Notes: generated by a model from the sequence alone, not told the origin. Shown: positions 38,659 through 54,010, numbered from the stretch's first letter. The stretch: 64,000 nucleotides of DNA from Candidatus Helicobacter avistercoris (GCA_019115525.1 DXDJ01000004.1:1807-65806), one strand, 5' to 3'. Program-made: numbers and translations.

Positions 38659-40175
38659 CTGTTATAAAGAAGTGGGAATTTTTTGTTGCGATAGATTGGA
38701 GTTTGGCGATTGTTGAAGTAAAAAAAGTCGCCTATCATTTTGCTAGAGAAAAAATCTCCACACACACAAATCCCCTCAATCTCCACTAGATTTCTTAGAG
38801 CTAAATAGAGCTTTGAGGGCAAGTGCGTAAAGCTCTCAACATATCCTAGTGCGATCACTTCATTCTCTACTCCTGCCATCTTAAAACTCATTCCACAAGC
38901 AATGCACTTAGCAAGATTAAACTTCTGCAAGATCACAGAATCTTTTTCAAATACATAATCAATGCTCACGCCTCTTTTATCAAGATTTCTTCGAGCAATT
39001 TCAAAAGGATTTTCTCCAAGATCCAAAACAACCTTAGCTATCTCCCAAACCCCATAAATTCCTTGAGGAAATGTCTCAAAGCTAACATTCTTGCTCAAAG
39101 CTTTGGGGTAAGTCTTTGAAAAATTCTCAATCAAGCGTTGAGAATTTTCATCCAAAGCCTTAATCTCTTCAAGCAAAGCAAACAAATCCTTAGGAAGTGC
39201 AAAACTCATCACTTCATTAAACCATTGTGTTTGAGAGTTATAAAGAGAGATCTTATCCCCACCCTCAAAAGAAAAATAAAAATTCAAAACATTTTTTTGT
39301 TCCAAATCATTCTCGGCAATAATCGTGGATAAAAAAGCTTTATCAGGACTATGCATGGAGTTGAATTTTTCTATCAGTTTTTCAGGAGTGGTATGTGTGT
39401 GCAAAAGTGCAAAATGCTCATTTTCATACACAACAATCTCATCACACTCTTGAATTATCTCTTCTAAAATATATCTCCTCTCCCCCTCTGTTGCACCATA
39501 AACAAAACTCACCCCCCTGTTTTTAAGAATCTCAAAAAGATCATAGAGGATCTTATCTTGTGCTAATGATACTTTTACAATCTCCTCACTCTCCCCATAT
39601 CCCTTCACCCTAACAATAGGACGCTCATAACTTGCAAGAGCTTTTAATTCTTTGTGTGTAGGAGTGCAAACCTCCAAAATCCTATGCACATCTAGCACAT
39701 AGATTCTCTGGCTAGGTGTAAGGCTTAGGATATGTTCTCCACTTGGCACTCTAACAGCAATGCTCTTGCCCATCAACAAATCATTTGCAATTTGCTCTAA
39801 TATCGCTTGAGGGATGTGAGTGATTTCTTGAAGACAAACCCCACATCTATCCTCTTTGCTCTCAAGACACTCTGGGCAAAAATGTGCCGTGGGTTTAATA
39901 GGTGTGATTTGCATCATTTGCGGGAAGTCTTGAGTTTCAAAACTTCTTGAATCAATTTCATCAAGATAAATGCTCTGAGGGATTTTGACTGAAAGCGCTT
40001 CAACAATTTTTTCCAATCTCTCCACTTCATCACACTCAATCCAAAGTCGCAAATCCCCTTCTTCCTTTTGAAAAATAGTGTATTTGAGATGATCAAATTG
40101 CTTGAGGATGTTTTGCAAAAAAAAGCCAAGAGTCTCCCCAAAACCTCGATGTTCAAAACTTAATTCAAAGATCAT
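38655..40175 (-). CDS. hydE: Campylobacterota hydrogenase accessory protein HydE
   Basis: 506 aa between hydD and hypF; FCPEC...CGVC; assignment mainly by position. Confidence 0.7.
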   Translation of the reverse strand: MIFELSFEHRGFGETLGFFLQNILKQFDHLKYTIFQKEEGDLRLWIECDEVERLEKIVEALSVKIPQSIYLDEIDSRSFETQDFPQMMQITPIKPTAHFCPECLESKEDRCGVCLQEITHIPQAILEQIANDLLMGKSIAVRVPSGEHILSLTPSQRIYVLDVHRILEVCTPTHKELKALASYERPIVRVKGYGESEEIVKVSLAQDKILYDLFEILKNRGVSFVYGATEGERRYILEEIIQECDEIVVYENEHFALLHTHTTPEKLIEKFNSMHSPDKAFLSTIIAENDLEQKNVLNFYFSFEGGDKISLYNSQTQWFNEVMSFALPKDLFALLEEIKALDENSQRLIENFSKTYPKALSKNVSFETFPQGIYGVWEIAKVVLDLGENPFEIARRNLDKRGVSIDYVFEKDSVILQKFNLAKCIACGMSFKMAGVENEVIALGYVESFTHLPSKLYLALRNLVEIEGICVCGDFFSSKMIGDFFYFNNRQTPIYRNKKFPLLYNR

Positions 40176-40731
40176 TTTGTTTCATATCTCTCTTAAATGA
40201 AATTCTTGCAATCTCTTGAATACTCACAGAAGGATTTTCTATAATCTGACATTTTGGATCAAGCTCTAAGATATAGTTTTTAAGCACTTTCTCCATCGTA
40301 TCAACAGCATTTTTCATTTCATTTGAAAGCTCAAATGTCGAATCAGATTCTATTCTTGTAGGGATCACTCCAATAATCTTAATTGAAGGTATATCTCCAT
40401 GAGTTCGCATCATCTCCATTGTTTGCAGTGTTTCAACCTCATGAGCACTACCCTGCCAGCTAATTTGCTTGGGCATATTCTCAAAATCAAAGAAAAAAAC
40501 ATCTCCAAACTTGCCATCTTCACTCTCAATACAGTCAACTAAAATCACTTTGTCATATTCCACAATAATAGGGATAAGTAGGTGGGCCAAAGTCCCACCA
40601 TCGATAATAGTAATGGTATTCCCCTCTGAGGGAGAAAAAGTGTATTTCTCATCAATATAGTGGGCAAAATGTGCCCCAATCCCTTCATCTCCGAAGAGAA
40701 TATTTCCAATTCCTAAAATCAAAATCTTCAA
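40165..40731 (-). CDS. hydD: Hydrogenase maturation protease
   Basis: ILGIGNILFGDEGIG, IDGGT, SAHE. Confidence 0.93.
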   Translation of the reverse strand: MKILILGIGNILFGDEGIGAHFAHYIDEKYTFSPSEGNTITIIDGGTLAHLLIPIIVEYDKVILVDCIESEDGKFGDVFFFDFENMPKQISWQGSAHEVETLQTMEMMRTHGDIPSIKIIGVIPTRIESDSTFELSNEMKNAVDTMEKVLKNYILELDPKCQIIENPSVSIQEIARISFKRDMKQNDL

Positions 40732-41360
40732 GAGTGTGCCTTTTTATAGCTATTTTTATAAAGGTATTTCATTGATGCCATATAGATATGAATTGGCAAG
40801 AAAATGAGGAATACCCAAGTAAGCATATGGTGAATCCATCTTACATTTGCAATCCCACCCATCAAGCTCTCAATAGGTCTAAAAAGTGGATACACAACAC
40901 TCATCATCCCATTGTGATAGCAGTGCATAAAAAGCACAAAACCAGTGATAATAATCCCATAAAGGGCGATATACACACCAAGATAAGCTACAAATTGCAA
41001 TGGATTATAAAGCCCATTGTCTTTGACTTTTCCACCCAAAGTAAGATAGAAAATGATTCTTGAAGTCCATTGTTTTGCACTCAAGACATCTGCAAAAGAT
41101 CTTCTCTCAATCTCAGCTCCCTTGCTAAAAAAGAAAAGATAAGTCTTAAATAGTGTTGCACCTAAGAGAATCATTCCTAGCAATACATGCCAAAATCTCA
41201 TTTCAGCTTGCAAAAAATTTACAGGTGCTGTGAGATTGGCATCAGGCATAATAAATGGTTGAGCGATATAAAAACCGCTCACCACCAAAACAACCATACA
41301 GATAAATCTAATCCAATGCGTTACCCAAAAAGATAAGGGCAAATCGTGATGACCTTTCAT
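40728..41360 (-). CDS. hydC: [NiFe]-hydrogenase b-type cytochrome subunit
   Basis: HW, FWH, YNPLQ, IHH...IHIYM heme-ligand His pattern. Confidence 0.92.
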   Translation of the reverse strand: MKGHHDLPLSFWVTHWIRFICMVVLVVSGFYIAQPFIMPDANLTAPVNFLQAEMRFWHVLLGMILLGATLFKTYLFFFSKGAEIERRSFADVLSAKQWTSRIIFYLTLGGKVKDNGLYNPLQFVAYLGVYIALYGIIITGFVLFMHCYHNGMMSVVYPLFRPIESLMGGIANVRWIHHMLTWVFLIFLPIHIYMASMKYLYKNSYKKAHS

Positions 41361-41381
41361 TTGTTTCTCCTTTTTAAGGAA

Positions 41382-43106
41382 TTAGGCAAGGTATTTTGGA
41401 TCGATTTTGTATTCGCCCAATTTATTGCCTTTAGTATCCATTACATGCACCGCACAAGCAATACAAGGATCATAGCTGTGGATATTTCTAATGATCTCTA
41501 GTGGCTTAGTGATATTCTCAAGCTTCATACCAATGAGGTTAGCCTCATAAGGTCCTTTTTGTCCTTTTGCATCAATCGGTCCTGCATTCCAAGTTGAAGG
41601 AACAACTGCTTGATAGTTTTCTACTACACCATTTTTGATTCTTACCCAGTGGCTAAGCATACCTCTTGGCACCTCTCCAATGTAGCGTCCTTTGTATTCT
41701 TTTTTAGCATCGATTGATACAGGAGTATAAGTGCTCTCATCTTTTTTGAGGTTTTCAATCAAAGAGTTGAATGTTTCCATTCCATGCTCTGCGATGAGTT
41801 TAGTTTGAAGCATTCTTGCTGCTGTTCTTCCTAGAGTGGTGAAAAGAACTGTTGCAGGGACTCCTGCTTCTTTGAGGAAGTCATCAACAACTTTTTTGAT
41901 TCTCTTATTACCTTGAGCGTATCCTACAAGCATACAAGCCAATGGTCCAACTTCAAATGGTTTAGAATCATATCGTGGAGATTTAATCCAGCTGTATTTT
42001 CCTTTCTCATTGATGCTTGGTGTTTCAACACTCTTGCCCTCACCATTGATTGTTTGCTTAGCAACAAATCCTGTGTAGTTTGGATCAGTTTGCCCATCGT
42101 ATGGGTGAAGTGGCTTATCTTCTTTATACCAAGAGTGAGTACACTCTTCCATGATCAAGCTCTCATCAATCTCAAATGCTTTTGTAAGATCTTTATTGAG
42201 AATATAACCAGCATTGAAGAGATTTTCAGTTGCATTAAGTGCGATTCCATCTCCTGCAATGAAGTTTGGCACAGATACAGTTTGAGTTACACTCGCCTCT
42301 GCTCCAAACATCTTAGCAGCCATCAACACATCAGGATAGTAAGCTCTCTCAATAAATTCTTTTACATGCTCAAAGCGAGTTTTCCACTCAGCAAGACGGC
42401 TAGGATCTAGCAAATCTCTCACACAAGTTACGCCACCAACGACAAGACTTTGTGGGTGTGGTTGCTTACCACCAAGGATAGCCATAAGTTTTGCACCATC
42501 TCTTTGAACCTCAATACATTTAAGATAGTGAGAGAGTGCAATAAGATTTTGCTCAGGAGTTAGGCGATAAGTTTTATTACCCCAATAACCATTTGCAAAG
42601 ATTCCAAGCTGTCCGCCATCAACCATTTTTTGAACTTTCTCTTGAGCAAGTCTTAGATCAGTTTCACCTGCTGCATAAGGATTTTTGCTGTATTTGTAAG
42701 CTTCTTGCTCAGCTTTTTTTGGATCAGCTTTAAGTGCAGAGATGACATCCACCCAATCAAGTCCATGCAAAAGATAGAAGTGAACGATATGATCCTGCAA
42801 GAAAAGTGCTTGAGCAATCATAGATCTTACATATCTAGCATTAAGTGGGATTGTTACACCCAAAGCATTCTCAACTGCTTCAACTCCAGCTCGATAGTGA
42901 GAAGAGGTGCAAACACCGCAGATTCTTTGAACAATCAAGCCTACATCTCTAGGATCTCTTCCCTTAACAATCACTTCAAGTCCTCTCCAAAGTGTTGAAG
43001 AAGAAAAAGCGTTTTTAATCACATTGTTTTCATCAACTTCAACCTCAACTCTTAAGTGTCCTTCAATTCTTGTAATTGGATCGATTACTACTCTTTTATT
43101 AGCCAT
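41382..43106 (-). CDS. hydB: [NiFe]-hydrogenase large subunit
   Basis: DPITRIEGH, QRICGVC, C-terminal DPCIACAVH plus cleavable tail. Confidence 0.98.
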   Translation of the reverse strand: MANKRVVIDPITRIEGHLRVEVEVDENNVIKNAFSSSTLWRGLEVIVKGRDPRDVGLIVQRICGVCTSSHYRAGVEAVENALGVTIPLNARYVRSMIAQALFLQDHIVHFYLLHGLDWVDVISALKADPKKAEQEAYKYSKNPYAAGETDLRLAQEKVQKMVDGGQLGIFANGYWGNKTYRLTPEQNLIALSHYLKCIEVQRDGAKLMAILGGKQPHPQSLVVGGVTCVRDLLDPSRLAEWKTRFEHVKEFIERAYYPDVLMAAKMFGAEASVTQTVSVPNFIAGDGIALNATENLFNAGYILNKDLTKAFEIDESLIMEECTHSWYKEDKPLHPYDGQTDPNYTGFVAKQTINGEGKSVETPSINEKGKYSWIKSPRYDSKPFEVGPLACMLVGYAQGNKRIKKVVDDFLKEAGVPATVLFTTLGRTAARMLQTKLIAEHGMETFNSLIENLKKDESTYTPVSIDAKKEYKGRYIGEVPRGMLSHWVRIKNGVVENYQAVVPSTWNAGPIDAKGQKGPYEANLIGMKLENITKPLEIIRNIHSYDPCIACAVHVMDTKGNKLGEYKIDPKYLA

Positions 43107-43108
43107 TT

Positions 43109-44266
43109 TTACTCTCCTTTAGTATTTGCATCTTTAATTTTCATAATTGTTGCATGTGCAGCAATTCCAATCGCAGTCGCACTCAAAACCCCAATACCAA
43201 TCTTATCGGCTGTTGCATCTGCACCATTTCCACCAAATACGCTTTGGAATTTGCGATCAGCAAGAGGTTTTTCATAAGGCGCCATTGTATCCCAGAAGTT
43301 TGGTTCGCTACAACCAATACATCCATGTCCTGCTTGGATTGGCCAAGAAACACCGCTATTGAATTTACTTACAGAACAATTATTGAAAGTATAAGGTCCT
43401 TTGCACCCTACTTTGTAAAGACAATATCCCTTTTTTGCACCCTCATCACCAAAGCTCTCTACAAATTCACCTGCATCAAATCTTCCTCTTCTCTCACACA
43501 TATCATGGATTCTTTGTCCATAAGCCCAAGTAGGACGATTGAATGCATCAAGCACAGGGAGATTTCCAAAAAGAACAAAATACATCAAAGTTCCTACGAT
43601 ATTTCTCTCACTTGGAGGACATCCTGGCACATTGATCACTGTTTTGTTGCTTACAGCACTCAAAGCTTTTGCGTTGGTTGGATTTGGATAAGCTGCTTGC
43701 ACACCTCCAAAACTTGAACATGTTCCAATAGCAAATACAGCCGCACTCTTAGCAATTACTTCTTTTGCAAGTTCTTTTCCTGTTTTTGCCTCAGGTCCGA
43801 TTGTCAAAAACTTCCCATCATTTCCAAATGGGATTCCACCCTCAACCATAAGGATATACTTCCCTGCATATCTCTTCATTGCCTGATGCAAAGATAGCTC
43901 TGCTTGCCACCCAGAAGGTGCCATCAAAGTTTCGTGATACTCTAGAGAGATATAATCAAAAATCAAAGCATCAATACTTGGAAACTCTGATCGTGTCAAA
44001 CTCTCACTACATCCTGTACATTCCGCCATATTGAGCCAAATCACAGGCAATCTATCACTAAGCTCAGCTGCTTTTGCAACAAGAGGAGTATATGCTGGAG
44101 AGAGGGCAAGCATTGCTGTCATGCTCCCAGCCCATTTCATAAAATCTCTTCTTGTAATCCCCTTTTCTTCAAGCATTGAAGCAATCGAGGAACCCTCTTT
44201 CATTGCAGGCATTTTTTCAAGTTGTTCTAAACGCCTTTGCAATTTCTGCATTTCTTTATTTCCCAT
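43109..44266 (-). CDS. hydA: [NiFe]-hydrogenase small subunit (Tat substrate)
   Basis: TRRDFMK Tat motif, ECTGCSES, Fe-S Cys motifs, C-terminal anchor helix. Confidence 0.97.
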   Translation of the reverse strand: MGNKEMQKLQRRLEQLEKMPAMKEGSSIASMLEEKGITRRDFMKWAGSMTAMLALSPAYTPLVAKAAELSDRLPVIWLNMAECTGCSESLTRSEFPSIDALIFDYISLEYHETLMAPSGWQAELSLHQAMKRYAGKYILMVEGGIPFGNDGKFLTIGPEAKTGKELAKEVIAKSAAVFAIGTCSSFGGVQAAYPNPTNAKALSAVSNKTVINVPGCPPSERNIVGTLMYFVLFGNLPVLDAFNRPTWAYGQRIHDMCERRGRFDAGEFVESFGDEGAKKGYCLYKVGCKGPYTFNNCSVSKFNSGVSWPIQAGHGCIGCSEPNFWDTMAPYEKPLADRKFQSVFGGNGADATADKIGIGVLSATAIGIAAHATIMKIKDANTKGE

Positions 44267-44335
44267 ATTATTTCCTCCTAAAAAGTATTGACTAAAAAGC
44301 CCATACGATTGATTTTAGTGGAAAATTTTTTGAAT

Positions 44336-44360
44336 TATCATTTTTGGTATGTATTTAATA
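44336..44360 (-). promoter_or_regulatory. Possible NikR-type operator upstream of hydA
   Basis: Minus strand TATTAAA-N11-AATGATA versus recalled H. pylori NikR consensus TATWATT-N11-AATWATA (11/14); the AT-rich background weakens it. Confidence 0.3.
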
Positions 44361-44391
44361 ATCTTTTTTACAAAAATGTGTAGAATAGTAA

Positions 44392-45999
44392 CTATTTTAT
44401 TAACAAAATTCTTTTACGTAGAGATAAAATCATCGCTGGTGAAACAGAAAGCTCATCCACTCCAAGCCCAATTAGCTCTTCACAAACCTTTAAATCGCCA
44501 GCAAGTTCTCCACAAACACCAATCCAGCAATTGTTTTGATGTCCAGCATCAACAACCATTTTGATAAGTTTGAAAATTGCAGGATGATAAGGATTTGCAA
44601 ATCGCTCGAGTTTAGGGTTTTGTCGATCAAGTGCTAGAGTGTATTGGGTAAGATCGTTGGTTCCAATACTAAAAAAATCTACTTCTTTTGCCAAATCTTG
44701 TGCAATCAGTGCAGAAGCCGGAGTTTCTATCATTACTCCAAGCTCAAGATTTTCATCATACTCAAGCCCTTGCTCCTTTAGCTCATTTTGCACTTCTTGA
44801 AGGATCGTCTTGATCTCTTGCACTTCCCAAAGAGAGGTAATCATAGGAAACATTACAGCAAGTTTGCCATACACACTTGCCTTGCATAATGCTCTAAGCT
44901 GGGTTTTGAAAATTTCTTTTCTATCAAGACAGATTCGGATTGCACGATAGCCAAGTGCTGGGTTTTCTTCAAAATCCAAATCAAAATAATCAATCTTCTT
45001 ATCCGCACCAATATCAAGAGTTCTTATCACCACCTTTTTACCCCCCATAAGCTCCAAGACTTCTTTGTAAGCCTCAAATTGCTCATCCTCGCTAGGATAA
45101 GTATTTTTCTGCAAATACAAAAACTCACTTCTAAAAAGCCCTATGCCCTCAGCATCATTTTGCAAAGCACTCTTTGCATCTTCAAGATTTCCAATATTGG
45201 CATAAAGCATAATTTTTTTGCCACTTTGAGTGAGAGTGGGTTTGCCAATGTAGGCTTGAAGCTCTTCTTGCTCTTTTGCTTTTCTTTCTTGAATCTCTGT
45301 GAATTCTTTTAGTAACTGCTCACTTGGATTGACATAGAGCTTCCCACTCTCGCTATCCAAAATTGCGACTTCTCCATCAACACTCTCATCATAATGCATT
45401 TGGATACATGCTGGAATCCCCATCGTTCTAGCCAGAATTGCTGTGTGAGAATTGTTTGAGCCATAGCGAGTAACAAGTGCTAGGAAGCAAGAACGATCAA
45501 GTTGAAGAGTTTGACTGGGAGAAAGATCATCAGCCAAAATGATGCTAGGTTCTTTAATCTCTCTCTCAACCACACCACTTAAGATTTTTAAAACTCGATT
45601 GCTAATATCTAGGATATCTGCACTTCGCTCTTTCATATACTCATCATCCATTTGGGCAAAAAGAGTTGAGAAATACTCTCTTGCCTCAAGGAGAGCATGA
45701 GATGCGCTCTGACCTTGAGCAATCTTCTCTTCAATAAACTCATTGTAGTCAAGATCCTCAAGCATCATTGCATGCACTTCAAAGATCATTGCCTCTTCTT
45801 CGCCAATCTCTTTTAGAGCTTTTTGATGAAGTGCATTGATTTCTTCTATCGCTTTTGCTTTGGAATTTTGAAATCTTTCAAGTTCTTCTGCGGGGGTAAG
45901 GACATCTTGGTTTTGCTCTTGAGGTAAATTCTCCTTCACTAGAGCAATCTTGCCAATTGCAATCCCACCAACAACGCACTTTCCTTGATAGACTTTCAT
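44392..45999 (-). CDS. ptsI: PTS Enzyme I (PEP-protein phosphotransferase)
   Basis: GSNNSHTAILAR (phospho-His), GIGLFRSEFL, IRTLDIGADK, ENPALGYRAIR, IGTNDLTQY, CGELAG. Start set at ATG 45999 after AGGAG. Confidence 0.97.
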   Translation of the reverse strand: MKVYQGKCVVGGIAIGKIALVKENLPQEQNQDVLTPAEELERFQNSKAKAIEEINALHQKALKEIGEEEAMIFEVHAMMLEDLDYNEFIEEKIAQGQSASHALLEAREYFSTLFAQMDDEYMKERSADILDISNRVLKILSGVVEREIKEPSIILADDLSPSQTLQLDRSCFLALVTRYGSNNSHTAILARTMGIPACIQMHYDESVDGEVAILDSESGKLYVNPSEQLLKEFTEIQERKAKEQEELQAYIGKPTLTQSGKKIMLYANIGNLEDAKSALQNDAEGIGLFRSEFLYLQKNTYPSEDEQFEAYKEVLELMGGKKVVIRTLDIGADKKIDYFDLDFEENPALGYRAIRICLDRKEIFKTQLRALCKASVYGKLAVMFPMITSLWEVQEIKTILQEVQNELKEQGLEYDENLELGVMIETPASALIAQDLAKEVDFFSIGTNDLTQYTLALDRQNPKLERFANPYHPAIFKLIKMVVDAGHQNNCWIGVCGELAGDLKVCEELIGLGVDELSVSPAMILSLRKRILLIK

Positions 46000-46007
46000 T
46001 CTCACTC

Positions 46008-46265
46008 CTATAAATTTTCTTTCAAAAACTCTACCAACGCCTCATAAGCACTGCTCTCATCCTCACCTTCAATAATGAAGTCAAGCTCTTCTCCACTTTT
46101 GGCTCCCAAACTCATTACAGCCAAGATTCTCTTCGCATCTGCTTGCTTACCTTTGTTGCTAAGTGTGATTTTTGAGCTAAACTCTCCTGCTTTTTTTACT
46201 AGCACTCCAGCAGGTCGTGCGTGAATCCCTTGAGGATCCTTGATAATATGCTTAATCTCTTTCAT
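46008..46265 (-). CDS. ptsH: PTS phosphocarrier HPr
   Basis: GIHARPA with His15; GEDE motif; residue 46 is Arg. Confidence 0.96.
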   Translation of the reverse strand: MKEIKHIIKDPQGIHARPAGVLVKKAGEFSSKITLSNKGKQADAKRILAVMSLGAKSGEELDFIIEGEDESSAYEALVEFLKENL

Positions 46266-48149
46266 TTATTTCTCCTTTTTCCAAATTCCTAAAATTACTG
46301 CACCCACGATACTTCCTATCACCAAAGAGAGGCAGTAGTAAAGCACATTTTGCACCACTGGGAAAACAAAAATCCCACCATGAGGTGCCATAAGCCCGCA
46401 TCCAAAAAACATAGACAATCCCCCTGCAATCCCTGAGCCAATCATACAAGATCCAAGCACTCTGAGTGGATCGCTTGCAGCAAATGGGATCGCTCCCTCA
46501 GTGATGAATGAAAGTCCCATTACATAGTTTGTAACCCCACTCTTCTGCTCTGCAGGAGTAAATTTGCTTTTGAAAAATGTTGTTGCAAGAGCGATGACAA
46601 GTGGAGGCACCATTCCTCCAATCATCACCGCAGCCATCACATCGTAATTTCCTGAAGCAATAGAGGCTACACCAAAAACATAAGCTGCCTTATTGATTGG
46701 CCCACCCAAATCTGTTGCCATCATCACACCAAGCAAGATTCCAAGCAAGACTTTCCACTCTCCATTCATGGAGTTCAATCCCTCATTTACAAAAGTATTG
46801 ATCGCACCCACTGGTGGCTCGACAACATAAGTCATCACAAGCGCAACGCCTAAGATTCCAAGCAGCGGATAAAGCAAAATTGGCTTCATCCCATCTAGAC
46901 TTTGAGGCAAAGAAGTCAATGCTCTCTTAAGTCCTAGCACAATATAGCCTGCCAAAAATCCTGCCAAAATCGCTCCCAAAAATCCAGAACTTCCAGCCTT
47001 AGCAATCGCTCCACCCACAAATCCCACAACCAATGCTGGACGATCAGCAATACTCATTGCAATAAATCCTGAAAGAATTGGAAGCATAAAGCTAAATGCC
47101 ATCCCTCCAATCCCCATAAAGAATTTTGCAATCTCGCTATTGCTTCCAAATGCTTTTTTTACCCCATCACTTGCATTAAGCAAATCTACATAATAGCCAT
47201 CAATCAAAAAAGAAAGTGCGATTAAAAGCCCGCCACCCACAACAAAAGGAAGCATATAAGAAACGCCATTCATTAGATGCTTATAAAGTGAGTGTCCCAA
47301 AGAAACTTTGGCCTCCTCTTCTTCTCTAAGCTCTTGAAAGTCTTGTGCTCCTTGATAGATGGGCGCATTTTGAGCCTCATTGATAAGCTCTTGAGGTCTA
47401 GAGATTCCCTCTGCCACTTTGACAAAAAGCACTCTTTTGCCTTTAAATCTCTCTAGTGGTACTTGAGTATCAGCAGCGATAATGACACACTCAGCATTTG
47501 CAATATCTTCGCTGCTTAGCTCGTTTTTTGCACCACTTGAGCCTCGTGTTTCTACTTTGATCACTACTCCCATCTCTTGAGCTTTGCTCTCTAGGGCTTG
47601 AGCTGCCATATAAGTGTGAGCAATCCCTGTTGGACACGCAGTAACTGCCAAAACTTTTGCATTCTCAACCTGCTTTTTTTCACTCTTTTGCACACCTTGA
47701 GCCTCATCAATGATTTGAGAAAACTCCTCTGCACTTTTGGCTTTGAGAAGATTGGCTACAAAATCTCCTTGCATAAGCAAAGTAGAAAGCTGACTTAAAA
47801 TTTCCAAATGTGCTTCATTTTTACCCTCAGGTGCAGCGATCATAAAAAGTAATCTAACTTTTTCACCATCTAGAGAATCAAACTCCACTCCATCAGGAAA
47901 AACCATCGCACTCAAAGTTGCACTCTTTACACTTGAGCTTTTAGCATGCGGGATTGCAATCCCCTCACCAATCCCTGTGCTTCCTTCTTCTTCTCGTTTT
48001 AGCACTGCTTGCATATAGCTTTGAGAATCTAAGAGATTCCCACTTTTGCTCATTAGCTCAACACCTTGAGCAATCGCCTCGCTTTTGGTATCTGCTTTTG
48101 CATTTAAACAAATGCATTCTGCTTGTAGCAAGTCAGTGATTTTATTCAT
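46266..48149 (-). CDS. fruA: PTS fructose-family EIIABC permease
   Basis: IIA GIAIPHAK, IIB TACPTGIAHTYMA, IIC HLMNGVSYMLPFVVGGG, DLGGPINKAA, ITEGAIPFA. Confidence 0.95.
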   Translation of the reverse strand: MNKITDLLQAECICLNAKADTKSEAIAQGVELMSKSGNLLDSQSYMQAVLKREEEGSTGIGEGIAIPHAKSSSVKSATLSAMVFPDGVEFDSLDGEKVRLLFMIAAPEGKNEAHLEILSQLSTLLMQGDFVANLLKAKSAEEFSQIIDEAQGVQKSEKKQVENAKVLAVTACPTGIAHTYMAAQALESKAQEMGVVIKVETRGSSGAKNELSSEDIANAECVIIAADTQVPLERFKGKRVLFVKVAEGISRPQELINEAQNAPIYQGAQDFQELREEEEAKVSLGHSLYKHLMNGVSYMLPFVVGGGLLIALSFLIDGYYVDLLNASDGVKKAFGSNSEIAKFFMGIGGMAFSFMLPILSGFIAMSIADRPALVVGFVGGAIAKAGSSGFLGAILAGFLAGYIVLGLKRALTSLPQSLDGMKPILLYPLLGILGVALVMTYVVEPPVGAINTFVNEGLNSMNGEWKVLLGILLGVMMATDLGGPINKAAYVFGVASIASGNYDVMAAVMIGGMVPPLVIALATTFFKSKFTPAEQKSGVTNYVMGLSFITEGAIPFAASDPLRVLGSCMIGSGIAGGLSMFFGCGLMAPHGGIFVFPVVQNVLYYCLSLVIGSIVGAVILGIWKKEK

Positions 48150-49054
48150 TTTTCCTCCTTAAGTTGATTGAGTAGATCCTCAACTTTATCTAAAGTTCCA
48201 AATCCTCTAGAATACGCACTTGCACTCCCACTTGCCACTGAGTAATAAAACGCCTCTTTGAGATTTTGATTTTTGATAAACCCTGCAATAAATCCTGCCA
48301 CCATACTATCTCCTGCCCCCACAGAATTGACAAGCTCCCCCTTTGGGACACTAAGACTATATACTTCACCATCTTCTCCCAAAAAGACTGCACCATCTCC
48401 TCCTAGAGATACCAAAATATTTCTTGCTCCCATTTCTTGAAGCTTTTTGCAATCACCCAATATCTCATCAAGAGAGTAAATTTTGTGATGAAAAATTGCC
48501 TCAAGTTCGGATTTGTTGGGCTTAATCAAAAAGGGGCGATAAGGAAGTGCCAATGTCAAAGCTTCTCCAGTCGTATCAAGGGCAACAAGTGCGTGAGAGC
48601 ATTGTTTCATAGCCTGAGCATAAAAATTCTTAGGCATTCCTTGGGCAAGTGAGCCAGAGAGAATGAGAATATCCTCTCTGCTTACTCCCTCAAGCAAGTG
48701 GAGCAAGGTTTCAATCTCATCTTGAGTAGGGATTGCTCCATTGGCGTTGATTTCACTCTCTTCTTTGGAATGAATCTTAACATTGATACGCGTATAGCCA
48801 TTTTTCAAAAAAACAAAACGGGAGTTGATATTGGCTTTTTCCAATTGTCTTGAGATCTCCTCTCCGCTAAAACCTGCCAAAAATCCTAAAGCTTGATTGG
48901 GGATTTCAAGATTGTTGAGCATGATAGAAACATTGATCCCCTTTCCTCCTACAACCAAGCTTTCACTTTTTGAGCGATTGGTTTCCCCTAGCAAAAAAGC
49001 ATCAAGTTCAAGATAATAATCCAATGCAGGATTGAGAGTTAGTGTATAGACCAC
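48146..49054 (-). CDS. fruK: 1-phosphofructokinase (PfkB family)
   Basis: YTLTLNPALDY, GGKGINVS, TRINVK, IKPNKSEL, NSVGAGDSMVAGF; 4-nt overlap with fruA. Confidence 0.93.
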   Translation of the reverse strand: MVYTLTLNPALDYYLELDAFLLGETNRSKSESLVVGGKGINVSIMLNNLEIPNQALGFLAGFSGEEISRQLEKANINSRFVFLKNGYTRINVKIHSKEESEINANGAIPTQDEIETLLHLLEGVSREDILILSGSLAQGMPKNFYAQAMKQCSHALVALDTTGEALTLALPYRPFLIKPNKSELEAIFHHKIYSLDEILGDCKKLQEMGARNILVSLGGDGAVFLGEDGEVYSLSVPKGELVNSVGAGDSMVAGFIAGFIKNQNLKEAFYYSVASGSASAYSRGFGTLDKVEDLLNQLKEEK

Positions 49055-49116
49055 AACAACTGCCTTACTTTAAAATCAAAACTCTGAATTCTAATCAAAA
49101 AAACCATAAAAACCCC

Positions 49117-49305
49117 TTAAAAAGCTTTTTTGTCTTTGAGTTTTGCCTCAATTCTATCAAGACGCTGACTCATTCCTGCTGTTGCATCAATTTGATTGAG
49201 TAAAACATAGAGTGTAAAAAGTGCAATAAAAAAACTCAATAGCAAACAAACAATTGATATTTTCAATATCTTTTTTGGCAAATCTTCCATTTTATTCTCC
49301 TGCAA
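49117..49305 (-). CDS. Small single-pass membrane protein (hypothetical)
   Basis: 62 aa, one TM helix followed by LLNQIDATA and a short coiled coil. Confidence 0.65.
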   Translation of the reverse strand: MQENKMEDLPKKILKISIVCLLLSFFIALFTLYVLLNQIDATAGMSQRLDRIEAKLKDKKAF

Positions 49306-50068
49306 TTATTGAAGTGGCTTGAAGCAAATTTTCTCTCCACATACTATCAAAGGGATTAATTTCGATAAGTTTGAGATTGGGCTTGGATACAAGATGTAAA
49401 ACTTGTTTTTTTAGGTTAAAGGGAGTGATCAAAACAAAACTTAACTTCTCTTCTTTAAAGATCTTTAGTTCTTGAGGATTGGATATATCTAAAGCTTGAA
49501 GAGAAAAATCTTTAGCATAATCTTCCCAAGTGTTTTGGAAAACACCAAAGCTCTTTTTTGCATTAGGTAGAGCAAATTTTGTTTTAATCTGATTTTCAAG
49601 CTCTTTTAATTCTTTTAAAAAAGCTTCTAAATTTTCTTTATAAATTTTTGCATTTTTAATATCAATCGCTCTTAAAACATAGGTAATCTTTTTGGCATAT
49701 TTTTTTGCACTGGACAAAGAGAGCCAAGAGTAGCAAATTTTTTCTTTGCAATGAGGTGAGGAGAGATCAAGGATGCGCAAACTAGGATTTGCATTTGCAA
49801 AACGTTTAATCCATTTCCGCTCAAAAGGGATTCCAATCGCAATATAAGCATTGAGATTTTTAATCATTTTGACTTGTTCAATACTTGGCTCATATAATCG
49901 TGGATTACGTGATTGAGGAACGATTGTTACAACCTCTACAAACTCTCCTCCAATTTTTTTAAGAAAGTATTCTTCTACTGCAATACTCACGCCGACTTTG
50001 ACTTTAAAATTATCCTCCACTGCCAATAAGAAGATACATAGAGTAAAAAATACAAAAAGCTTTTTCAC
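49292..50068 (-). CDS. Metal ABC transporter substrate-binding protein (ZnuA/TroA family)
   Basis: Signal peptide, KIGGEFVEV, PRLYEPS, GIPFERKW, WLS; metal-ligand His residues look degenerate. Confidence 0.75.
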   Translation of the reverse strand: MKKLFVFFTLCIFLLAVEDNFKVKVGVSIAVEEYFLKKIGGEFVEVVTIVPQSRNPRLYEPSIEQVKMIKNLNAYIAIGIPFERKWIKRFANANPSLRILDLSSPHCKEKICYSWLSLSSAKKYAKKITYVLRAIDIKNAKIYKENLEAFLKELKELENQIKTKFALPNAKKSFGVFQNTWEDYAKDFSLQALDISNPQELKIFKEEKLSFVLITPFNLKKQVLHLVSKPNLKLIEINPFDSMWRENLLQATSIIAGE

Positions 50069-51420
50069 TGCTTTTCTTCTCCAATATCTCTCATAAGGGT
50101 ATATAAATCATTCACAAGTAGCACTCTCTCTCCTAGGGTCTTTCCTCTTCCCCAAATCCCATTATATTCATTGGCTGGCTGGAGCGTTGTGATTACAACT
50201 CCACCCAAACGATACTCTTCCTTCCCCCAAATATCTCCTGCTTGAACACTCCACGCACTATGAGCTACAATCGCTCTTCCTTTTTTATCTCTCCCCAAAT
50301 AAAGCATAATATGCCCTTTAAGATACAAAACACTTCCAAAAGGCGTGGCATTGGAAAATAAAACTTTTTCTTTTTGAGATGATATTAGAGTATCAAGCTT
50401 GATCTGCCGAGTTCCTAAGTTTCCTTGTGCATAGGAATTGCGTGGCAAATATAGAGCAAAATTGGAGAAAATATCTCTAATAAAGGCTGAGCAATCTCTC
50501 TCCTCATACATCCCTCCCCATCCATACTGGCGTCCAATGAGAGCATTGATATATTCTGCTACTTTTTTTTGTGAAAAAATTACAGGGAAAGAATCAAAGG
50601 CTTGAGGATCAATGCGTGTTTTCTCAATCCTGAGTTTTCCATCACTTTGTCGCTTAAAAATCCAAATCTTGTCTTTATCTGCGAGTGCAAAAAGTTTTCC
50701 AATCCTAGCTTGGGTTATATAATCCCCTCTCCAATCTGTGATGATCATTTCATCATTTTTAGGCATCACAAAGTCTTTGATGGATGCAAGCTCTTTGGCT
50801 TGTTTTGCAGTTACGAAAGCCAAATGACTTACATCAACCCAGCCATAAACAAACTCTGTTTGAATGTGTGCAAATCGTTTGCTTTTATCAAAATGTGTCA
50901 CCAAAACTGGGGTGCCATAAAAAATCATTGAGTTTTGCCAACGATCAAAAGGAAAGCCTGTTGGTTTTGAGAATCTAGGATGGACACTTGGCACAGCCCT
51001 TACATCGCTATCTTTTATCACAATTGCCATTTGAGCACTGCTAGGATAAAGGGGGATTTGCATATCTTGTAAAATCTTTTGTGTCATTTTTGGATCAAGG
51101 GGTTTTAGATTTTCTCCATATCCTAGATTTTTTTCTAGAGAACTTTTGATCCAAAAAACTTCAGCAACGTTTGGATTGGGTGTCATTCCTAAAAATGGAG
51201 CAAAAAATTTTTTTAGATAATTCTCTTTGAGATTACGCATTTCTTCACTGCTAAGGCGTGAAACTTTTTTTTGAGGCAGATACTCCAGCGCATCCTGAGA
51301 CATCAAAAGATCCGCGATAGGTTTCTTTTTTTCTTGTGAATTATTTGAGCAACCCCAAAAAAACAAACAAATCAAAAAGAGATTAATAAAATTTCTCATA
51401 CCCTTCCTTAGAAAATCCAA
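50065..51420 (-). CDS. SH3 + NlpC/P60 peptidoglycan hydrolase lipoprotein
   Basis: Lipobox FFWGC, YPFD-like FPFDRWQNS, YGWGG...RDCSAF, LPRNS, GHIMLYLG. Confidence 0.88.
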   Translation of the reverse strand: MDFLRKGMRNFINLFLICLFFWGCSNNSQEKKKPIADLLMSQDALEYLPQKKVSRLSSEEMRNLKENYLKKFFAPFLGMTPNPNVAEVFWIKSSLEKNLGYGENLKPLDPKMTQKILQDMQIPLYPSSAQMAIVIKDSDVRAVPSVHPRFSKPTGFPFDRWQNSMIFYGTPVLVTHFDKSKRFAHIQTEFVYGWVDVSHLAFVTAKQAKELASIKDFVMPKNDEMIITDWRGDYITQARIGKLFALADKDKIWIFKRQSDGKLRIEKTRIDPQAFDSFPVIFSQKKVAEYINALIGRQYGWGGMYEERDCSAFIRDIFSNFALYLPRNSYAQGNLGTRQIKLDTLISSQKEKVLFSNATPFGSVLYLKGHIMLYLGRDKKGRAIVAHSAWSVQAGDIWGKEEYRLGGVVITTLQPANEYNGIWGRGKTLGERVLLVNDLYTLMRDIGEEKQ

Positions 51421-51721
51421 ACTCCAAAATATCTTGATCGATCAAAATAGGACGCTTGATCAAAGTTGGATTCTCGCTCATCAAAGCAATCAGTTCATTT
51501 TCATTCATTTTTTGGATATCAGGACTCATGGCACGATAGGTGATTCCTTTTTTGTTCAAAACTTTATCCATTCCTTTTTGTTTCACCCACTCTGCAATCA
51601 TTTTTGTGCTAGGAGGATTTTTTTTGTAATCAACAAAATTATATTCAATATGACGACTATTTAAAAACACCAATACTTTTTTCACACTTTGACAATTCTT
51701 AATGCCCCAAACTTCAACCAT
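51383..51721 (-). CDS. ArsC/Spx-family protein
   Basis: WGIKNCQSVKK, NKKGITYR, PTLIKRPIL. Confidence 0.88.
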   Translation of the reverse strand: MVEVWGIKNCQSVKKVLVFLNSRHIEYNFVDYKKNPPSTKMIAEWVKQKGMDKVLNKKGITYRAMSPDIQKMNENELIALMSENPTLIKRPILIDQDILEFGFSKEGYEKFY

Positions 51722-51731
51722 TTTCCGATCC

Positions 51732-52166
51732 TTAAAGTGTTTTTAGCAAATTTACAGTGCATTCTTTAATCATTGCATACACTCGCTCAAATCCTTCCAT
51801 CCCTACATAATAGTAAGGATCGGGCACATCCTCTCCATCAAAACCAAAATCTCCTAGCTTTTTGATCTTTTCTCTCTCAAATCCAAGAGAGAGTAAATCT
51901 TGAAAATTTTGAGAATCCATACACACAATTAAGTCAAAATCATTATCCTTTGGATAGCGTATTGGCCGACTTACAATCCCCTCCAAAGAAACTCCATATT
52001 TTTTAGCCACAGCCAAACTTCCCTTGCATGGCCTCTCTCCTTGATGATAGCCACTAAGTCCTGCAGAATCAAAAGAATGGCTTCTATCCAAATCTCTTGC
52101 AATTCCCTCAGCCAAAGGCGAACGGCAAATATTACCTAAGCAAACAAAAAGAATGCGTTTGCTCAC
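51732..52166 (-). CDS. Low-molecular-weight protein-tyrosine phosphatase
   Basis: VCLGNICRS P-loop, DSAG, DVPDPYY. Confidence 0.93.
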   Translation of the reverse strand: MSKRILFVCLGNICRSPLAEGIARDLDRSHSFDSAGLSGYHQGERPCKGSLAVAKKYGVSLEGIVSRPIRYPKDNDFDLIVCMDSQNFQDLLSLGFEREKIKKLGDFGFDGEDVPDPYYYVGMEGFERVYAMIKECTVNLLKTL

Positions 52167-54010
52167 AGAGCTTCCTTAATAGATTGCACAAGTTTGGGAA
52201 TACTTAGCCCCAAACTCTCTTCAATCAAAGCTGTTTTTCCATGAGGAATAAACTCATCTTGGATTTCAAAAGTTTTTAGCTCTACTCCCCCTATCCCCTC
52301 TTGTGCAATAAACTCCAGCAATGCACTTCCTACCCCTCCAAGCCTATAACTATCACTAAAGACAAAAACCTTAGAGTATTGCTTGAAAAGTTTTTTCAAC
52401 CCCTCACGATCTAAGGGCTTAATAAACCTCAAATCCACAACACCTACTTCTATCCCCTCTTTTTGCAATTCCTCTGCAACCCTATATGCTCTTCCCACAC
52501 CATTTCCATAACCAATCAAAACCCCCCTCTCCCCCTCTCTTAAAACTTCAAGTTTTCCAAGTTCAAAATCCCTAGCCTCAACCTCCCCCTCATTCATGAC
52601 AAATTCTCCTCTAGGGTAGCGAAAGGCACTAGGAGAATCACAATGAGAATAAGCAAACTTCACAGCCTTTCTCAAGGTTACCAAATCTCGTGGGGCAAAA
52701 AGGATCATATTTGGAATACTTCTAAGATAAGCAATATCCAAAAGTCCTTGATGAGTTTCTCCATCTTCTCCCACTATTCCAGCTCGATCAATTGCAAATC
52801 TTACAGGAGAGCTCATAATCCCTACATCATGCACAATGCTATCATAGGCTCTTTGCAAAAATGTCGAATAGATTGCCACAAAGGGTTTAAATCCCTTTTG
52901 AGCAAGTGCAGAGCAAGAAGTAACTCCATGAGCTTCAGCTATGGCCACATCCCAAAAGCGTTGCGGATATGCTTCCATAAGTGCATTCATCCCTGTTCCA
53001 CTAGGCATTGCAGCAGTAATCCCCACAACACTCTCATCTGTACTTGCAAGCTCTTTGAGTGTTTCTCCAAAAATCTGAGTGGGTGAGATTGAGGAGCTTT
53101 TTTTTAGACTTTCTCCACTTTGCAAATCAAAAGGAGAAACTCCATGCCATTTTTCAAACTGCCCCTCTGCAATTTTATATCCTTTGCCTTTTGTCGTTTG
53201 AGCATGAATAAGCACTGGAGCTTTCATCTCTTTTGCTTTTTTGAGAGTAGAGATAATTTCTTCAAGATTATGTCCATCAATAGGGCCAATATAATTCAAT
53301 CCCAATTCTTCAAACAAAATCCCAGGAGTAATGAGCTTAAAAGATTCTTCAAACTTTCTTGCCATATAAGTTGCACTATCAGGCATCTTTTTGAGAATCT
53401 TTTTTATCCCACCTTTTACTCCTTGACAAAAGGGTGAAGCAATGGCTTGAGAAAGATAGCGAGAGATCGCACCAATGGGTTTGCTAATACTCATTTCATT
53501 GTCATTAAGAATGATAATCATTGGGTATTTTCTCTCCCCTAGTTCATTGAGTGCCTCATACACTAGACCAGAGCTCATTGCCCCATCACCGATCAAAACC
53601 ACAGGAAGAGTATCTTGCTTTTGCAATGAAAAAGCCTTGGCTACCCCTACTCCAGCAGAAATAGCGGTAGAACTATGCCCAGCAATAAAAAAATCCGAAG
53701 AAGATTCTTTGGGGTTGGGGAATCCGCTTAATCCGCCAAAACTTCTTAGACTTTCAAACTCTTCCCAGCGTCCAGTAAGGAGTTTGTGAGCGTAAGCTTG
53801 ATGTCCTACATCAAAAATAAAAGGATTGCTAAGATGATCAAAAACTTGATGCATCCCCACGATCAAATCCACAGCTCCTAGTGCAGAGCTAAGATGTCCT
53901 CCATTGCGAGACACAACATCCAAAATCCTCTCTCTTAGAGCTTGAGCGATATTTGCGAGTTCTGAGAAATTTTCATTTCCTCTCACTTCTTCATATCCAA
54001 AACCCATCAA
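52163..54010 (-). CDS. dxs: 1-deoxy-D-xylulose-5-phosphate synthase
   Basis: GGHLSS, DVGHQAYAHK, GHSSTA, GDGA...ND TPP motif, DRAGIVGEDGETHQG. Confidence 0.98.
   Translation of the reverse strand: MMGFGYEEVRGNENFSELANIAQALRERILDVVSRNGGHLSSALGAVDLIVGMHQVFDHLSNPFIFDVGHQAYAHKLLTGRWEEFESLRSFGGLSGFPNPKESSSDFFIAGHSSTAISAGVGVAKAFSLQKQDTLPVVLIGDGAMSSGLVYEALNELGERKYPMIIILNDNEMSISKPIGAISRYLSQAIASPFCQGVKGGIKKILKKMPDSATYMARKFEESFKLITPGILFEELGLNYIGPIDGHNLEEIISTLKKAKEMKAPVLIHAQTTKGKGYKIAEGQFEKWHGVSPFDLQSGESLKKSSSISPTQIFGETLKELASTDESVVGITAAMPSGTGMNALMEAYPQRFWDVAIAEAHGVTSCSALAQKGFKPFVAIYSTFLQRAYDSIVHDVGIMSSPVRFAIDRAGIVGEDGETHQGLLDIAYLRSIPNMILFAPRDLVTLRKAVKFAYSHCDSPSAFRYPRGEFVMNEGEVEARDFELGKLEVLREGERGVLIGYGNGVGRAYRVAEELQKEGIEVGVVDLRFIKPLDREGLKKLFKQYSKVFVFSDSYRLGGVGSALLEFIAQEGIGGVELKTFEIQDEFIPHGKTALIEESLGLSIPKLVQSIKEAL

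Follow-up and report, generated by a model that had tools for sequence, protein, structure and literature searches.

A self-sufficient fructose phosphotransferase operon, probably of clostridial origin, in one clade of enterohepatic Helicobacter

To our knowledge, Helicobacter and Campylobacter are the textbook bacteria without a phosphotransferase system (PTS) and without a complete glycolysis. A stretch of 64,000 nucleotides from Candidatus Helicobacter avistercoris (GCA_019115525.1 DXDJ01000004.1:1807-65806), referred to here over its full length as the window, raises a question about this picture. On its minus strand, at positions 44392-49054, an open reading frame (ORF) listing of window 40000-53000 reveals four consecutive intact genes, fruK-fruA-ptsH-ptsI, which correspond to a fructose PTS and a 1-phosphofructokinase. 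How did such a system come to lie in a Helicobacter genome, and what could it do there? The answer that we consider likely is that a complete and self-sufficient fructose PTS, together with FruK, was acquired once as a block from gut Clostridia of a Lachnospiraceae-like type by the ancestor of one enterohepatic Helicobacter clade. The block would have gone in between the hydrogenase operon and a DUF5408 gene, and the donor's DeoR-family repressor gene fruR would not have been part of it. Since then the block would have been inherited vertically under purifying selection, and is now absent from two nested species.

The original prediction described four tightly coupled genes with intact catalytic residues, and this description was borne out in the coordinates, the family models and the motifs of Enzyme I (EI), HPr, IIA, IIB and PfkB. 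The Pfam and NCBIfam models assign all four proteins to their families without ambiguity. The operon begins with fruK (48146..49054, minus strand), which starts with GTG and encodes a 1-phosphofructokinase of the PfkB family of 302 amino acids (aa), recognised by TIGR03828 and PF00294. Its motifs GGKG36 and GAGD246 are in place, it scores lower on the LacC and PfkB-2 models, and its closest PDB relatives are the fructose 1-phosphate kinases 2abq (the best, E 8.5e-68) and 2jg5. Overlapping it by 4 bases, fruA (46266..48149, minus strand) encodes a fructose-specific PTS EIIABC of 627 aa (PF00359, PF02302, PF02378), with IIA at residues ~7-149, IIB at ~168-257 and IIC at ~283-625. FruA passes all three fructose subfamily cut-offs (120.5 against 103.5 for TIGR00848, 110.1 against 76.85 for TIGR00829 and 406.1 against 157.55 for TIGR01427), and carries the phosphorylation sites His68 of IIA (GIAIPH) and Cys172 of IIB (TACPTG). 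Fructose is the predicted substrate, on the strength of these subfamily models and of the linkage to fruK.

The general components of the system follow directly. The ptsH gene (46008..46265, minus strand) abuts fruA and encodes the phosphocarrier HPr, 85 aa in length, which is matched by PF00381 and by TIGR01003 (92.6 bits against a cut-off of 47.9) and bears His15 in the motif GIHARPA. Position 46 is an arginine, and not the regulatory Ser46 of the HprK/CcpA-type Firmicute HPr; therefore, the protein is read as a catalytic HPr only and not as a substrate of HprK. Eight bases further on, ptsI (44392..45999, minus strand) encodes an EI of 535 aa, counted from the ATG at 45999 where public gene calls also start; an in-frame GTG at 46005 adds two residues. 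EI contains all three EI domains (PF05524, PF00391, PF02896), reaches 595.2 bits on TIGR01417 against a cut-off of 341.7, and matches the solved EIs 2hro, 2wqd and 2hwg over the full length (E 1e-131 to 1e-139). In the 535-aa numbering, His185 (GSNNSHTAIL) and Cys496 (GVCGE) are invariant in the EI alignment. The operon represents the sole PTS locus of the 1.48-Mb genome when searched by tblastn with every PTS part, with PpsA as the only distant relative of EI.

The distribution of EI places this operon in a narrow group. Whole genomes were searched with the EI model, and a match was taken as a true EI when it scored above the TIGR01417 cut-off. The survey covered the 7 species of the window's genus as defined in GTDB, 173 Helicobacteraceae species from 14 genera, and 401 evenly sampled Campylobacterota. 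Within the genus, a true EI is present in five of the seven species: the window species (labelled G000), H. brantae (G001), an H. cholecystus-like species (G002), H. enhydrae (G003) and H. kayseriensis (G004). The labels G005 and G006 stand for PTS-negative species of the same genus-level clade. H. cholecystus, H. brantae, H. enhydrae and H. kayseriensis are associated with bile, bird guts and sea otters. Across the Helicobacteraceae, a true EI is found in 5 of the 173 species genomes, all in 1 of the 14 genera, and across the sampled phylum in 6 of 401. The original prediction had reckoned with the chance that PTS orthologues are widespread and vertically inherited in the Helicobacteraceae; they are not widespread, with 0 of 166 species positive outside the genus. 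The statement that Campylobacterota lack a PTS holds in so far as the system is rare, and is too broad at the level of the phylum, where other architectures exist.

These other architectures are of different kinds. One sampled genome (G444, at L031:10093-12633) carries an IIA(Glc)-HPr-EI fusion, and another (G455, at L032:7363-12218) an IIA(Fru)-HPr-EI fusion beside fruK, with separate IIB and IIC; both systems are independent acquisitions of a proteobacterial-type PTS. An HPr-EI fusion of ~606 aa, in which the EI N-terminal domain is missing, occurs widely in one other family (f3; L021:916-2736 in G357, with similar matches in 11 genomes). It scores 286-321 bits, under the EI cut-off, and may be a DhaM/PtsA-like phosphotransfer protein. 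Additionally, among unnamed metagenome FruA proteins (P0121-P0149), many are 97-99% identical to that of the window and belong to the same species, and many others, at 64-93% identity, belong to further members of the clade. The PTS-bearing Helicobacter group is therefore common in public metagenomes.

The relatives of the operon outside Helicobacter point to gut Clostridia. The best non-Helicobacter matches of EI (55-58% identity) and FruA (60-62%) are from Lachnospiraceae and other gut Clostridia, and those of FruK (48-54%) from Clostridium, Eubacteriales and Veillonella. For comparison, 80 loci out of a total of at least 80 were listed from a collection of species genomes, picked by similarity to the query. 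Their EI genes are all Clostridia-like, including a few in bins with other labels. The exact order fruK-fruA(IIABC)-ptsH-ptsI occurs in 16 of these 80 Clostridia loci, so the module pre-existed ready-made in the donor group. In the EI tree of 87 sequences, the Helicobacter proteins form one clade (Shimodaira-Hasegawa-like approximate likelihood ratio test, SH-aLRT, 99) among Bacillota, with the other Campylobacterota EIs far outside; in the tree of the four concatenated proteins, the five Helicobacter operons again form one clade (100/100). Thus, the suspected Firmicute-like origin of EI and HPr is upheld by matches and trees that place the Helicobacter proteins among Bacillota and Clostridia, and the proposed single transfer of one block, EI and HPr included, agrees with the shared gene order. 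A patchy distribution, together with nearest relatives and gene order in a distant phylum, marks the operon as a laterally acquired block. The donor probably belonged to the Clostridia and was Lachnospiraceae-like.

The regulator of the donor cassette is a separate matter. Of the 7 Clostridia loci checked, 6 have a DeoR-family fruR immediately before fruK, and no DeoR/FruR homologue was detected in the window genome or beside the operon in the other helicobacters; the donor's fruR either did not come along or was lost. In some Lachnospiraceae cassettes, a second PfkB-family kinase gene stands upstream of fruR-fruK (L042:644-1552, L074:894-1799). A change of Ser46 to Arg in HPr was considered as an adaptation after the transfer, and was rejected, since the HPrs of Clostridia cassettes already have Arg or Lys at this position. 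Five Lachnospiraceae-like EI genes lie in bins labelled Paludibacteraceae, Prevotella, Muribaculum, Fretibacterium and Spirochaetia (L047, L064, L085, L112 and L113). One of them, L064, has the complete fruK-fruA-ptsH-ptsI cassette. Either mis-binning of contigs or additional lateral transfers of the module would account for them.

The site of the operon is shared among its carriers. As originally described, it lies between a hydrogenase gene and a small membrane-protein gene: hyaA downstream and a DUF5408 gene upstream. The right border is hyaA, encoding the NiFe-hydrogenase small subunit (43109..44266, minus strand; assigned from PF01058 and PF14720 on the identical gene in L155 and from synteny), and the left border is the DUF5408 gene (49117..49290, minus strand; PF17402). 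A spacer of 62 bases (49055..49116) lies upstream of fruK, and one of 125 bases (44267..44391) separates the ptsI stop from hyaA. According to tblastn over 20-kb regions, the order dxs, LMW-PTP, ArsC, NlpC/P60, ZnuA-like, DUF5408, fruK-fruA-ptsH-ptsI and hyaABCD is common to G000, G001, G002 and G004. The DUF5408 gene adjoins fruK in all five carriers, in G004 as an ORF found by eye. In H. enhydrae (L028, G003:C1:68000-87900), the upstream side is shared and the downstream side is rearranged, with no hydrogenase operon after ptsI, and the fruA-ptsH spacing is unlike that of the other species.

The two PTS-negative species G005 and G006 present empty sites, in which DUF5408 is followed directly by hyaA after a spacer of ~200 bases; tblastn and short-word blastn detected no remnants of PTS genes there. 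A search of the window ORFs and their families found no mobility genes in the flanks of the operon; border repeats were not searched for. When window 43109-51420 was compared with outgroup Helicobacteraceae genera (L164, L165, L166), the DUF5408 gene was found 1.6-3 kb beyond the ZnuA-like gene, with no hyaA within 15 kb of it. The position of the hydrogenase operon right after DUF5408 is therefore a trait of this genus, which puts the PTS at a rearrangement junction. The DUF5408-hyaA junction was tried as an outgroup polarity marker and set aside, since a genus-specific junction cannot alone polarise insertion versus deletion.

The original prediction also read host-like codon usage as a sign of an old acquisition, and the composition and divergence of the genes agree with it. 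The GC content, GC content at third codon positions (GC3) and codon usage of all four genes fall within ~1 standard deviation of the long ORFs of the genome (z-scores -0.6 to +1.0). Between species, the synonymous divergence dS exceeds 1 and is saturated, the non-synonymous divergence dN is 0.07-0.49, and dN/dS is 0.05-0.27. Host-like codon usage and saturated synonymous sites together argue for an old transfer, and the site in five species and a gene tree compatible with RpoBC accord with it. The signs of a recent island, deviant composition and mobility genes, were not seen, consistent with an old and ameliorated acquisition.

The RpoBC tree (~2,900 columns) has the topology ((G001,(G000,G002)),(G003,(G006,(G004,G005)))), with the genus supported at 100/100. 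The PTS-negative G005 and G006 are nested in the genus, and G005 is the sister of the PTS-positive G004 (95/96). The topology of the PTS concatenate is compatible with this tree except for the placement of G003 versus G004. The concatenate puts G004 outside the group of G003 and G000-G002 (83/87), and RpoBC puts G003 with the G004 group (84/81), both being weakly supported. Identity between subclades is 56-59% for EI and 68% for FruA, against 55-58% for the flanking NlpC/P60 and 68-70% for dxs. The simplest reading of these sequences is that the operon was gained once, long ago, at the root of the genus or close to it, and was then passed on vertically under purifying selection for a long time, with two secondary absences.

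What could the operon do in such a host? The seven genomes of the genus hold no 6-phosphofructokinase (PFK), no pyruvate kinase (Pyk), no phosphoenolpyruvate (PEP) carboxykinase (PEPCK) and no PEP carboxylase (PEPcase; 0/7 in each case), and all seven hold a class II fructose-bisphosphate aldolase. In the window genome, Fba, TpiA, two GapA, Pgk, GpmI, Eno, AckA and PpsA were confirmed. Since PFK, pyruvate kinase, PEPCK and PEP carboxylase are absent, the operon would bypass the PFK step, and EI would be the only canonical route from PEP to pyruvate. From this gene content we infer that the operon feeds fructose into glycolysis at fructose-1,6-bisphosphate, past the missing steps. The PTS-negative congeners have no canonical catabolic enzyme joining PEP to pyruvate or oxaloacetate; PEP synthase is present in the genus. 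The enolase gene (G000:C28:65614-66894, from ~window 63808 and running past the window end) is on the same contig, ~15 kb from the PTS operon.

In the proposed route, PEP would phosphorylate His185 of EI, and the phosphoryl group would pass to His15 of HPr, to His68 of FruA IIA, to Cys172 of IIB and finally to fructose crossing IIC. Uptake would yield fructose-1-phosphate and pyruvate. FruK with ATP would convert fructose-1-phosphate to fructose-1,6-bisphosphate, and the class II aldolase, TpiA, GapA, Pgk, GpmI and Eno, which are gluconeogenic enzymes running in reverse, would carry this on to two PEP. One PEP would be recycled via EI, and the other could leave by reversal of PpsA or by biosynthesis. 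Per fructose, the route is predicted to give a net 1 pyruvate, 1 PEP, 1 ATP and 2 NADH. A wider proposal, for which we see somewhat less than an even chance, is that the clade is truly saccharolytic and fructose-dependent, that EI replaces pyruvate kinase, and that the acquisition accompanied or permitted the loss of most of the tricarboxylic acid (TCA) cycle and a shift of niche.

Other histories of the operon have to be weighed against a single clostridial gain. A contaminant or chimeric join is hardly credible. The window genome is indeed a draft of 80 contigs, but the operon lies ~45 kb inside a 71-kb contig, amid genuine Helicobacter genes and with host-like codon usage. Its junctions recur in the genomes of four other species, G001, G002, G004 and the closed 1.59-Mb chromosome of G003, which carries the operon at this site, and an independent Logan metagenome contig from a 97%-identical strain has the same junctions as the window. 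The contig chimera that the original prediction had named as a refutation is thus ruled out. An ancestral PTS of the Campylobacterota or Helicobacteraceae, lost nearly everywhere else, is very improbable. A few other Campylobacterota do have PTS proteins, but those use fused IIA-HPr-EI or HPr-EI forms, with EIs only 37-40% identical and outside the Bacillota and Helicobacter sequences. In addition, no other Helicobacteraceae species among the 166 has an EI, and the Helicobacter clade lies nested among Clostridia with the same order of genes. A further history, which we judge unlikely, is that the cassette entered one lineage and spread in the genus by recombination in the flanks, or that its presence and absence remained a polymorphism never fixed in G005 and G006. 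Such a history would suit the natural competence and free recombination of Helicobacter, the clean empty sites in G005 and G006, and the weak disagreement of the two trees on G003 and G004. However, the PTS genes have diverged between subclades as much as their flanking genes, so any transfer within the genus would have to date from roughly the time of the species splits. Under a single gain as under a spread within the genus, the cassette comes from outside the phylum.

The role of the operon has its own alternative, namely that it is intact but serves mainly for something other than fructose catabolism: a PEP-to-pyruvate valve, a regulatory phosphorelay, or the import of some other substrate, a ketose or a hexitol-like compound, for example mannosylglycerate or a different sugar of the Fru family. 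In a genus without Pyk, PEPCK and PEPcase, any PTS flux adds the missing step from PEP to pyruvate, and fruR is not present. FruA scores 452.5 bits on the mannosylglycerate (MngA) IIABC model, below its cut-off, which is level with its 456.5 bits on the enterobacterial FruA IIB'BC equivalog NF007984, whose cut-off of 793 is not reached either. We nevertheless think this role quite unlikely. In each of the five species, as in the donor cassettes, fruA is translationally coupled to the gene of an equivalog-passing FruK, the fructose IIA, IIB and IIC subfamily models are all passed, and a valve would still require a sugar acceptor.

Some observations weigh against the preferred account, that of one clostridial block inherited vertically and used for fructose. 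On the side of function, FruK passes the TIGR03828 equivalog narrowly (300.5 bits against 292), and its specificity for fructose-1-phosphate over tagatose-6-P or fructose-6-P is predicted from the linkage to fruA and the lower LacC and PfkB-2 scores; with the level score of FruA on the MngA model, the substrate specificity is therefore predicted and not certain. The second PEP per fructose has no canonical sink among the enzymes searched for, PEPCK and PEP carboxylase being absent and only PpsA found. No growth data on fructose were found in the literature for these species. In the 62 bases upstream of fruK, there is no regulator gene and no convincing sigma-70-like promoter, the promoter scan being no better than with shuffled sequence. 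On the side of history, the single gain requires two clean losses, in G005 and G006. As for the exact donor, the EI tree gives the Helicobacter clade a sister group with weak support, the best FruK matches are Clostridium and not Lachnospiraceae, and the outgroup sequences, on which the placement of the donor depends, were picked by similarity to the query.

Compared with known systems, the operon stands closest to the Clostridia cassette fruR-fruK-fruA-ptsH-ptsI (for example in Coprococcus hominis, Roseburia and Anaerocolumna genomes), which has the same four genes in the same order. In both, EIIABC is one polypeptide, EI is short (~535-550 aa), and HPr combines His15 with Arg46 or Lys46. The Clostridia cassettes are the nearest found outside Helicobacter, with identities of 50-58% for EI, 47-61% for FruA, 48-65% for HPr and 42-49% for FruK. 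Unlike them, the Helicobacter operon has no fruR and is host-adapted in composition, and its host has no other PTS, no PFK or Pyk, and no HprK/CcpA-type context that could be seen. The enterobacterial fruBKA system with general ptsHI shares the chemistry predicted for Helicobacter, which is PEP-dependent uptake as fructose-1-phosphate followed by 1-phosphofructokinase, and its IIB and IIC are homologous. However, enterobacterial FruB carries IIA on an HPr-like FPr and FruA is an IIB'BC protein, whereas the Helicobacter IIA is fused to IIBC, and ptsH and ptsI lie inside the sugar operon. The G455 system, with its fused FruB (IIA-HPr-EI), FruK and FruA, is likewise a self-contained fructose PTS in a mostly PTS-free phylum. 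Its EI, HPr and IIA are fused into a single chain of 827 aa, with IIB and IIC encoded apart from it, and the EI is only ~40% identical and remote in the tree; it is of independent origin from the Helicobacter operon. The fucose locus and the Entner-Doudoroff glucose locus of some C. jejuni/coli are also acquired blocks that give a sugar route to an 'asaccharolytic' lineage (PMC6247508). Those Campylobacter loci work with permeases and with pathways other than a PTS, and differ from strain to strain, whereas the Helicobacter operon combines a PTS with FruK, has become fixed in several species and has its predicted entry at fructose-1,6-bisphosphate.

The PTS-bearing clade corresponds to 'clade 8' of Mannion et al. 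2018 (PMC6247508). According to that study, PFK is missing from all Helicobacter, enterohepatic species are unable to take up or metabolise simple sugars, and clade 8 lacks 5 of 8 TCA enzymes; a PTS is not mentioned. The NCBI pipeline already names these PTS proteins automatically in four described species, and full-text literature searches found no paper describing this Helicobacter PTS. The system itself is an ordinary Fru-family PTS. What appear to be undescribed in the literature searched are its restriction to one clade, its origin as a block from Clostridia, and its fit to the two missing glycolytic steps. An intact and selected fructose PTS with FruK in a whole species group represents a testable counter-example to the no-sugar view of enterohepatic Helicobacter. 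Should the clade indeed prove saccharolytic, it would overturn the published conclusion that simple sugars are neither taken up nor used by enterohepatic helicobacters. The operon would also offer a clean case of a complete pathway module passing from gut Clostridia into Campylobacterota, and being retained there for long in the absence of its regulator. In practice, culture media and metabolic models could then be improved for these fastidious species.

Two minor observations concern the downstream side of the operon. In the 125-base spacer after ptsI, no terminator-like hairpin was seen and a consensus scan gave no terminator above chance; hyaA has its own ribosome-binding site, TAGGAGG. After hyaD, an ORF of 506 aa (window 38655-40175, minus strand), tentatively labelled hypF, is conserved behind the hydrogenase genes in G001, G002, G004 and G005, at 47-67% identity.

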